From: an uncultured Verrucomicrobiae bacterium
GTDB lineage: Bacteria > Chlamydiota > Chlamydiia > Chlamydiales > Rhabdochlamydiaceae
Assembly: GCA_963718565.1 (NCBI GenBank)
Contig: OY970364.1
Coordinates: 512,001 to 576,000, forward strand
Direction: 5' to 3'
DNA length: 64,000 nt
Under the pieces are notes generated by a model. The model did no database searches, was not told the origin of the DNA, and worked only from the letters and a program-made list of their open reading frames with translations. The position numbers and the translations under genes are program-made. Below are positions 43,827 to 45,326 of the stretch, one piece after another (the first letter of the stretch is position 1; every line of letters begins with the position of its first letter).

Positions 43827-45326
43827 TCAAAGAAATAATTCTGTGAAAGGGCGAATTTTTTGTTCAAGCTCCTCCCATTCCTGTTCAGCAATGCTCCCTT
43901 GCACAATTCCTGTTCCTGCAAACAGATGAAGTGAGCGTTCTCGAATTAATGCAGAACGGATGGCGACATACAGATTTGCCCCCTCGGGGCTAATGATACC
44001 GATCGGTCCGCCATACCATCCGCGGTCAAAAGATTCCATTTGTCTGAGAAGCGGAACTGCTTTTTCCCGTGGGAAGCCTCCCAAAGCAGGGGTTGGATGC
44101 AAAGCCTCGATCAGTTCCTCGTCAAAAATACCCCTTCGCAAAACCACATTTAAGCGATTGTGGATATGCTGCACATGGGAGGCTTTTAAGATACTGTCCT
44201 GACCGCCCCATTTCATTTCTTTGGAAAGAGGGGAGATTGACATCTGTAAAAAATTTTTAACGATTTGGAACTCATAGCGATCTTTTGCGCTGTTGAATAG
44301 TTCTTGTTCGTACTGAAGGTCCTCATCTGAAGTTGTTCCGCGAGGCCGTGTGCCGGCCAGAACGTCTGCGCTTAAAGATTGACCAACCCTCTCGAAGAGT
44401 TTCTCTGGAGTTGCTCCTAAAAAGCAAAGCGAAGGGGAAAATTGGAAAGCAAAAATTGTCGCATGTTTGGCTTTGTCCATCAGTTGGTTTAAGCAAGACC
44501 AGATGGAAACAGGTTGTGAAAATTGCAACGTCGTCTTTCGAGCCAAAACGATTTTATTCAGTTCCCCAGAGGCGATTACCTTTAAAGCGGCATCGACATT
44601 TTCTTTCCAGAGGCTCAATGCCGGAGTTTCAAGACGGTCGATCAAGGAATAGGTTTTAGAAGGTCGCAAGCAAGAAGGTTCAATTTCAAAATGCTCACTA
44701 TCGAGCGAATTGCAGAACTCCTCGCCGCATAAAATCGCGCTTTTGGCATCTGTCGCCTTGGCGGCGGCTGCCTTCGGCCCCGGTTCGCTCCTTCGCTCAC
44801 CTGCTTTGCACTGCGAAGGTTCCCCGGACCTTCTCGTGTCTTCGCAGCCACTTATCCAAGTATGCTTTCGCCGCCGCCAACCGAACCCGCTGTGCGGGTT
44901 CTGGCAACAGGTGCCAAAATCATCGATTTTCTGCTGGCGAGGAGTTTTGCAATTCCCTCTATTCAACGAATAAAAGATTGCTTCCGTCTTTTCATCGCTC
45001 TGCGAGAGTTCGATTTGAGGTAGCCAAAAACAGGTTTTAGGGAAACCCTTCCAGGTCGTATCTTCGCGATGAGAGTTTTCCAAAAAACGGATTCCACCAT
45101 AAAGCCGCATTTCAAAGGGGGCTCCTCCGGAAAAACGCGGAATACGAGGAAAGGAAAGAAGGTTTCCCACGGCAGCGCGCGCGACCTGTCCATCACGATC
45201 CCTCCAAAAGACCTTGGGATAAAGAGGATTGTTTTCTAGCCAGCCTAAGGCATCAAGTGCGGGCAGAACTTGTTTGGACAGATTGATCCAATAGGTCCTC
45301 CCATCAATCTCAAACGGGAGGCACAT
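43827..45326 (-). CDS. menF: Isochorismate synthase carrying an in-frame ~87-aa repeat insertion
   Basis: KIVLAR, GATPE, LAGT, LHPTPALGG, RGWYGG, VAIRS and AGTGIV are all intact. The insertion is at 44702-44960. Confidence 0.92.
   Translation of the reverse strand: MCLPFEIDGRTYWINLSKQVLPALDALGWLENNPLYPKVFWRDRDGQVARAAVGNLLSFPRIPRFSGGAPFEMRLYGGIRFLENSHREDTTWKGFPKTCFWLPQIELSQSDEKTEAIFYSLNRGNCKTPRQQKIDDFGTCCQNPHSGFGWRRRKHTWISGCEDTRRSGEPSQCKAGERRSEPGPKAAAAKATDAKSAILCGEEFCNSLDSEHFEIEPSCLRPSKTYSLIDRLETPALSLWKENVDAALKVIASGELNKIVLARKTTLQFSQPVSIWSCLNQLMDKAKHATIFAFQFSPSLCFLGATPEKLFERVGQSLSADVLAGTRPRGTTSDEDLQYEQELFNSAKDRYEFQIVKNFLQMSISPLSKEMKWGGQDSILKASHVQHIHNRLNVVLRRGIFDEELIEALHPTPALGGFPREKAVPLLRQMESFDRGWYGGPIGIISPEGANLYVAIRSALIRERSLHLFAGTGIVQGSIAEQEWEELEQKIRPFTELFL
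44702..44960. mobile_element. Palindromic MITE family A, long form, inside menF
   Basis: Aligns end to end with 7526-7709, with an 80-bp module (44770-44849) in place of 5 bp. Confidence 0.92.

Follow-up and report, generated by a model that had tools for sequence, protein, structure and literature searches.

A palindromic mobile element retained in frame in menF and in other genes of a probable chlamydial genome

The isochorismate synthase gene menF, in a 64,000-nucleotide stretch of DNA (hereafter the window; bases 512001-576000 of a one-contig genome of 2,284,058 bp), carries a 257-bp transposable element of the miniature inverted-repeat kind (MITE) that adds 87 codons to the gene. We give a probability of roughly 0.7 to the reading that this element inserted recently in the linker of menF, was retained in frame, and represents one case of a pattern that extends across its family. 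The results support the existence, in a chlamydial genus, of a MITE family with a way of life like that of the Rickettsia palindromic elements (RPEs), with menF as one of the two genes in which a copy lies deep within the coding sequence. In the sequence of events that we propose, a 257-bp non-autonomous MITE would have inserted in a length-variable linker between the N-terminal part of MenF and its chorismate-binding core, moved by a transposase that would act in trans and leave 4-bp duplications at AT-rich TWWA sites. The gene would be translated through the insert, and an otherwise normal enzyme would thereby gain an extra, 87-residue, Cys- and Arg-rich disordered loop. In the genome as a whole, purifying selection would filter random, AT-biased insertions: the subfamilies whose length, together with the duplication, is a multiple of three (3n; 257, 182, and 137 bp) would survive in coding sequence, and copies that shift the frame or bear a stop would be left between genes or at gene ends.

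The borders of the insert were determined by aligning the copies of the element and their flanks. The initial annotation had offered two delimitations, a 259-bp element at 44702-44960 with a 2-bp duplication and, alternatively, a 257-bp element with a 4-bp duplication. The former did not hold, and the latter was borne out by an element at 44703-44959 between TATC and TATT. Because the 257-bp element and its 4-bp duplication make up 261 nt, or 87 codons, and the strand that is read has no stop, menF stays a single open frame. The element arm CTCGCCGCATAAAA lies on the plus strand and, therefore, menF reads the opposite strand of the element (frame A, RGNCKTPRQQ...GEEFCNSL). The inserted peptide, RGNCKTPRQQKIDDFGTCC...AILCGEEFCNSL, is the same as in the first reading of the translation, and the element is open in frames of both strands, as had also been stated, the menF copy being stop-free in three of the six. 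This copy is 98% identical to other 257-bp copies, and 3 of its 257 positions depart from the consensus built on the other seven. In a word-based protein search, the insert peptide matched four proteins, three of them from the same genome. The strand present in the menF copy folds as a near-complete hairpin, with an energy of -79.9 kcal/mol (z = -10.1) that was equalled by none of 200 shuffles. A strongly structured transcribed RNA is the one feature in favour of an intron- or intein-like removal of the insert after transcription or translation, which would give a mature enzyme without it. We consider such removal very improbable, given that the element matched no RNA family in Rfam at E values up to 1, intron families included, that no Pfam family fell on the insert (Chorismate_bind was the only one on the MenF protein), and that the insert has transposon ends and a target duplication and belongs to a family most copies of which are intergenic.

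The element is a classical MITE, being small, bounded by terminal inverted repeats, flanked by a target duplication, and dispersed in many copies. An alignment of 19 full-length copies and the sequences beside them gave the ends of the family; the copies start with GAGGGAATTGCAAAACTCCTCGCC and finish with its complement; the long terminal inverted repeats open with GAGGGAATTGCAAAAC, and the family ends can also be written GAGGGAATTGC. By blastn, the family was found at about 140 places in the 2.28-Mb genome, and 272 termini were counted when one mismatch was allowed. Pairing of the termini gave 65 two-ended copies, which fall into classes of 182 bp (23 copies), 257 bp (8), 258 bp (7), 259 bp (4), about 71 bp (7), and other lengths. 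The 4-bp duplication was perfect in 47 of these 65 and had one mismatch in 12 more (chance, 0.5%). The duplications are 82% AT in a genome that is 56% AT, with the consensus T-W-W-A. Owing to this clear transposon anatomy, the polarity of insertion and the target sites are directly readable. No transposase frame fits in 257 bp, and the six-frame translation contains element-length frames only. The two other copies that had been named in the window, at 7526 and 63424, exist, as a 182-bp copy and as a 122-bp fragment, respectively (Table 1).

Judged by its orthologs, the menF segment is a recent, lineage-specific insertion and not an ancestral part of the gene. The initial annotation had expected one clean gap in chlamydial orthologs, and the segment is indeed missing from all 11 aligned same-genus orthologs, which have a single gap following the motif AIFYSLN; from all 18 same-genus genomes, in which the match to MenF is interrupted near residue 143 and picks up again at 230-275, in frames mostly of 404-446 codons; and from the 116 other proteins of a 117-sequence alignment, which put 0-7 residues opposite MenF residues 144-230. 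The nearest of 1283 database homologs (E <= 1e-20) are 82-84% identical to MenF and 414-417 aa long. Between menF and its counterpart in the nearest species, the synonymous divergence (dS) is 0.67 and the ratio of nonsynonymous to synonymous divergence (dN/dS) is 0.15, compared with an element that is only 3/257 from its consensus. Since high-copy repeats are often misassembled, the insert might be an artefact in which the assembly misplaced a repeat copy in menF. This is hardly credible, as the copy has a 4-bp duplication of its own and three private substitutions and lies in a genome assembled as one contig. In addition, a public soil run yielded a 402-nt contig that matches 44850-45251 with zero differences and thereby passes from the element over its right border into menF; the run is possibly the source sample, and its agreement with the assembly is, therefore, not independent. 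A search of public sequencing runs returned nine DNA runs and no RNA run for this stretch, and the four DNA runs that were compared with it gave short contigs only, which left parts of it uncovered and none of which ran across an empty site.

As for the protein itself, the start of menF is probably the ATG at residue 22 (45326) of the open reading frame (ORF), giving the 499-aa public gene call. Pfam Chorismate_bind matches residues 261-511, and the NCBIfam model TIGR00543 gave 298.2 bits, above its cut-off of 224.75, which assigns the protein to the isochorismate synthase family. K279 and E329 are unchanged across all 117 aligned sequences and are the counterparts of K190 and E240 of E. coli MenF, which we take to be the catalytic Lys/Glu pair. 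An AlphaFold model built from the 117-sequence alignment had a mean predicted local distance difference test score (pLDDT) of 85.1 and a predicted template modelling score (pTM) of 0.83, with the core above pLDDT 90; a first model from a 12-sequence alignment, with a mean pLDDT of 53, was too poor and was discarded. Residues 156-223 were modelled with pLDDT below 50 and no secondary structure, flanked by strands 134-142 and 249-255. A surface loop had been anticipated, and in the pLDDT-85 model the insert is a disordered loop between two well-modelled strands. By Foldseek, the best match of the model was E. coli MenF 3bzn (E 8.5e-36, template modelling score (TM) by target 0.82), followed by E. 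coli MenF 2eua, with a Yersinia MenF and Arabidopsis ICS1 also among the best; across 3bzn, 2eua, and 3gse, TM by target was 0.79-0.82. The linker that received the element (residues 140-256) has 13-91 residues, with a median of 33, in the 116 homologs. The model fits an insert that is a tolerated surface loop, with the MenF fold kept, and does not by itself prove activity. This MenF shares its fold, family model, invariant Lys/Glu pair, and men gene cluster with E. coli MenF (2eua/3bzn) and Arabidopsis ICS1 (8w6v), whereas it alone has an 87-residue, predicted disordered insert in the linker preceding the chorismate-binding core, which is seen in none of the 116 aligned homologs.

The persistence of the element in coding sequence was evaluated by a census of the family, in which each two-ended copy was removed in silico together with one copy of its duplication, and the junction was inspected for a long frame and the element for read-through. 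As a result, 14 of the 65 two-ended copies were verified within ancestral coding sequence, all of them 3n with the duplication and all stop-free in the host frame (six of 257 bp, seven of 182 bp, and one of 137 bp). The initial annotation would have been contradicted by intragenic copies that mostly shift the frame, and the opposite was found: 14 of the 41 3n copies were intragenic versus 0 of the 24 non-3n copies (Fisher p = 0.001), the latter lying upstream of starts or at or after stops. The split was equally sharp between 257-bp copies, 6 of 8 of which are intragenic, and the 258- and 259-bp classes, with 0 of 11 (Fisher p = 0.001). The family provides an internal control, in that sister subfamilies differ by 1-2 bases in length and one occurs in genes and the other never does. 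Each copy is open in only two to four of its six frames, and the probability that 14 would be stop-free by chance is about 8e-6.

The verification of the 14 copies relied mainly on ortholog alignments, which placed the ancestral start and N-terminal residues upstream of the element and the continuation of the protein downstream. This was the case for menF, tsaB, and the genes of a MORN lipoprotein, a GT92 glycosyltransferase, a Legionella_OMP-family protein, an FKBP-domain protein, a SET-domain protein, another glycosyltransferase, an unknown secreted protein, and a further unknown protein; a solute-binding protein (135133) was verified from one ortholog only. In the rluA-family gene, the Pfam pseudouridine-synthase domain spans the insert; in mutY, the catalytic part ends just ahead of the insert and the NUDIX part lies behind it; and in the oppF-like gene, the profile begins at position 33, directly past the insert. 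Eight of the 14 host genes encode a hydrophobic, signal-peptide-like N-terminus. Insertion deep within the gene is confined to menF (codon 143) and mutY (codon 273); at the N-terminal sites of the others, AT-rich lysine codons offer insertion targets. The PBP4 gene (copy 1736469) was taken off the intragenic count because its orthologs begin some 15 codons downstream of the element, and so was a collagen-like adhesin (2058346), which has a good start and signal peptide 11 codons downstream. Copy 2417, which has no family match, was kept outside the count, as was the gluconolactonase-like gene (1018889), which is no more than probable, its GTG start being unconfirmed. In-frame copies were also found in relatives, namely, past MutS domain V, inside a Trp/Tyr permease, ahead of the KsgA domain, and N-terminally in ZnuA, which indicates that the habit is genus-wide and not a one-off.

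The census also bears on whether menF is still a working gene. The insertion may have just knocked out or crippled it, so that the frame would be open by luck and recency and the gene would be a pseudogene-to-be, with menaquinone synthesis being lost or isochorismate supplied otherwise. We regard this as unlikely. It is true that a copy 3/257 from its consensus has had too little time for decay to show, that half of the frames are open in the 257-bp copy, and that an 87-residue Cys-rich insert and a long mRNA hairpin could each harm the enzyme. However, no two-ended copy in the whole genome breaks a gene by a frameshift or a stop; disruptive hits thus seem to be purged fast, and the survivors are unlikely to be null alleles. 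Moreover, the insert sits in a linker of variable length (13-91 residues in the homologs), and the fold is preserved in the model. The rest of the pathway points in the same direction, as menD to menE and ubiE are all intact. The men cluster is complete (ubiE/menG, menF, menD, menH, menB, menA, menC, and menE, with a downstream span of 37329-43781 on the minus strand), and every neighbour of menF is an intact ORF with a family match, in keeping with the earlier statement that the operon is otherwise whole.

The use of frames by the intragenic copies provides the main indirect argument for translation. Because the element is near-palindromic, two frames on opposite strands encode similar hydrophilic peptides (RGNCKTPR...GEEFCNSL). 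The third frame is hydrophobic (RELQNSSPHKIALLAPVALAAA...), and in all six verified cases of its use the protein has a hydrophobic, signal-peptide-like N-terminus. Of the verified cases that read a hydrophilic frame, six are proteins without such an N-terminus (MenF, MutY, and the RluA-family, OppF-like, TsaB, and SET proteins) and two are signal-peptide n-regions, and the association of frame with protein context was significant (p = 0.01). We infer that such a distribution would result if a filter operated on the product of translation. Two genes further indicate how copies persist or recur at particular sites. The copy in the gluconolactonase-like gene (G000 1018889-1019145) remains 257 bp long, a 1-bp loss being balanced by a 1-bp gain that is unique, and the nearest species (L183, G004:C130) has a 182-type copy in this gene with an identical site, orientation, and TAGG duplication, which is either an old insertion common to both species with the centre later converted or the result of two hits on one hot spot. 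In the MORN lipoprotein gene, two species have copies a few codons apart in opposite orientation.

These observations raise the question of whether the family was itself shaped or recruited as a coding module, with hydrophilic frames for linkers and a hydrophobic frame for signal or anchor segments. The match between frame use and protein context (p = 0.01), the compensating indels that hold one gene-resident copy in frame, the two genes with copies at the same site or a few codons apart in two species, and the three abundant in-gene classes that are all 3n with the duplication would be in line with recruitment. A plain selection filter accounts for the same facts, however, the three open frames are not clearly beyond what chance gives, and the size classes of other species are not all 3n; recruitment is, therefore, improbable in our view. 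As the open-frame count does not clearly exceed chance and non-3n classes occur in two species, we make no claim that the family evolved to be coding-compatible. Somewhat less doubtful, yet still speculative, is the idea of a second, independent RPE-like system in environmental chlamydiae, in which a translated MITE would act as a portable coding module that goes beyond being tolerated, remodels the secretome, and is kept in frame by selection, as the compensating indels and the occupancy of the same site in sister species would reflect. In such a system, the two hydrophilic frames would serve as disordered linkers in cytoplasmic enzymes, and the hydrophobic frame would supply or extend the signal or anchor segments of secreted and envelope proteins.

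Several points weigh against our preferred reading, that of a recent insertion retained in frame and translated as part of a family-wide pattern. With regard to menF, the insertion is about 1% diverged, which makes its open frame uninformative on function, and the dN/dS of 0.15, measured from the nearest species, reflects an average over far more time than has passed since the insertion. An intact frame in so recent an insertion is, thus, no proof on its own of a working menF. A 257-bp copy would be stop-free at about an even chance, with three of six frames open, and three open frames are not clearly beyond chance in shuffled sequences (P = 0.055 with plain shuffles and 0.097 with palindrome-preserving shuffles). 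Furthermore, translation could be reduced, or cleavage provoked, by an mRNA hairpin that exceeds 100 bp. With regard to the family, the first 27 codons hold 12 of the 14 verified copies, and at such positions the gene could be rescued by a restart within the element or past it; the hydrophobic frame has a TTG four codons ahead of the element end as a possible restart. The signal peptides were called by eye from the sequence, with no predictor. The size classes of two other species of the genus (G008, G009) are not all 3n with the duplication, so that luck, together with filtering, may account for the 3n lengths here. Finally, the mobilising transposase was not found by genome-wide terminus pairing or by searches with DDE_Tnp_1 and DDE_Tnp_4.

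Selfish DNA inside protein-coding genes has long been exemplified mainly by RPEs. The present family would be a second dense case, in an unrelated intracellular lineage. The initial annotation had drawn this analogy, and it stands insofar as palindromic repeats lie in frame in many unrelated genes. It does not extend to the family to which the element belongs, since inverted repeats and a 4-bp duplication mark it as an ordinary MITE, and the resemblance to RPEs is, therefore, one of outcome only. The companion claim that in-frame insertion is the hallmark of RPEs needs to be narrowed as well. In-frame MITE fusions are known in several bacteria too (PMC10969869, PMC5896051). A 2024 review of prokaryotic MITEs (PMC10969869) describes in-frame fusions by intragenic MITEs as not unusual, RPEs as carrying this process to an unusually high frequency, and a similar process elsewhere in prokaryotes as conceivable; the word "chlamydia" does not occur anywhere in its text. 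For the MITEs of Coxiella, in-frame and gene-end overlaps are reported, mostly at gene ends and in hypothetical proteins (PMC5896051).

The family resembles RPEs (PMC10969869) in that palindromic repeats occur in frame in numerous unrelated housekeeping genes, in both cases in an obligate intracellular bacterium, and that the added peptide is predicted to be compatible with the fold of its host protein. It differs from RPEs as described there in its inverted repeats of at least 24 nt, its 4-bp duplication, its length of 257 or 182 bp versus about 150 bp, and its host genome of chlamydial affinity. A further difference is that three frames are used with a context rule and that 12 of the 14 copies lie so close to the start. 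Intragenic ERIC/IRU, Coxiella QMITE1/2, and Anabaena MITEs (PMC10969869, PMC5896051) are likewise small and non-autonomous, with inverted-repeat ends, mostly intergenic, and in some cases read through by ORFs. In comparison with those MITEs, the present family has a higher share of in-gene copies (at least 14 of the 65 two-ended ones, including 6 of the 8 of 257 bp) and a sharp split between 3n and non-3n lengths. Whereas the reported Coxiella overlaps are mostly at gene ends and in hypothetical proteins, conserved enzymes are hit internally here (menF, mutY, and the rluA-family gene).

The earlier impression that such a system had not been described in chlamydiae was upheld by a full-text search with MITE and RPE terms and chlamydial names, which returned none, with subscription journals and supplementary files outside its scope; one Cardinium MITE paper mentions chlamydiae only in a reference. 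For genome annotation, these results suggest that orthologs of unusual length in these chlamydiae (MenF, MutY, MutS, permeases, and envelope proteins) may hold repeat-derived segments and that N-terminal signal-peptide predictions may be affected.

Of the 18 same-genus genomes, 14 had detectable copies of the family, compared with 0 of 12 genomes from the order's other families. The termini per genome in the genus numbered 272 here, followed by 68, 62, 23, 16, and 15. The 24-nt end had no exact match in the species-genome collection, and the 16-nt end matched 107 stretches, many by chance and many in chlamydial metagenome bins, with 3 of the 107 loci element-like past the tip. The element had no match in the plasmid collection. 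The relatives of MenF are labelled Chlamydiota/Chlamydiia, with some Verrucomicrobia or Melainabacteria, and the genome encodes four TLC nucleotide transporters. Taken together, the labels of the MenF relatives, the bins that contain the 16-nt tip, and the transporters suggest that the host genome is of chlamydial affinity and not Rickettsia. In the search for an autonomous partner, termini were paired up to 4 kb, and no pair in the genome encloses a transposase of its own. An ISAs1-like insertion sequence (IS) was considered as the parent and rejected, being a separate 1301-bp IS nested in another MITE (a 1740-bp terminus pair). Its ends differ from the MITE ends, as do those of the nine other repeat and IS classes that were inspected. 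In the genome search, the DDE_Tnp_1 matches all came from those other IS families, and DDE_Tnp_4 had no match.

Table 1. Positions in the window of the insert in menF, of further copies of the family, and of the men genes
Feature	Position	Strand	Details
257-bp MITE copy in menF	44703-44959	+	alignment of copies; arm beginning ...CTCGCCGCATAAAA on + strand
Left 4-bp target-site duplication	44699-44702		TATC; flank alignment
Right 4-bp target-site duplication	44960-44963		TATT (1 mismatch); flank alignment
Left terminal inverted repeat	44703-44726	+	menF copy GAGCGAATTGCAGAACTCCTCGCC; family consensus GAGGGAATTGCAAAACTCCTCGCC
Right terminal inverted repeat	44936-44959	+	GGCGAGGAGTTTTGCAATTCCCTC
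Central module, ~70 nt	44779-44849		missing from 182-bp type; separate repeat in genome and relatives
182-bp family copy	7527-7708		intergenic, upstream of 423-codon open frame
122-bp one-ended family fragment	63424-63545		blastn
20-bp perfect palindrome GAGGGAATTGCAATTCCCTC	3679-3698		both 10-nt element tips joined; sequence
menF ORF (isochorismate synthase, carries insert)	43827-45389	-	520 aa from TTG; 499-aa public gene call
ubiE/menG methyltransferase, upstream of menF	45310-46128	-	family match
menD	42042-43781	-	intact ORF, family match
menH	41359-42093	-	intact ORF, family match
menB	40511-41374	-	intact ORF, family match
menA	39633-40679	-	intact ORF, family match
menC	38680-39858	-	intact ORF, family match
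menE	37329-38780	-	intact ORF, family match

Several shorter or related sequences were observed beside the two-ended copies. The 20-bp palindrome GAGGGAATTGCAATTCCCTC has 19 copies in the genome, mostly with a 4-bp duplication, each of which adds 24 nt, and it may be a minimal derivative of the element or a remnant of hairpin deletion. The central ~70 nt of the 257-bp type also occurs as a repeat of its own, at about 15 places in the genome and at many in four related genomes; it lies in frame within ORFs of 772 and 605 codons (G000 762118, 1290390, and 1633133 are among its places). A 48-nt truncated relative of the element is in frame in the middle of a 412-codon frame that is LpxB-like by eye (G000 2281679-2281726), and a 119-nt half element is in frame at the N-terminus of a DUF1343 (PF07075) protein (G000 1910988-1911106). 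Among relatives, the two species G008 and G009 have 60-70 termini each, with size classes of about 164, 191-193, and 73 bp.

A second non-autonomous family of 306-563 bp (G000 1624273-1626012; window ~30928) has the same 17-nt tips, which continue as ...CTAAC. The 1301-bp ISAs1-like IS is present in 11 identical and 2 frameshifted copies, one of which lies in a copy of this second family. Elsewhere in the window, a 2040-bp repeat at 11351-13390, with a 474-codon ORF without known family, has 6 copies in the genome, and a segment of about 2.77 kb is present in two copies, at 20763-23533 and 24814-27587, about 1.3 kb apart.

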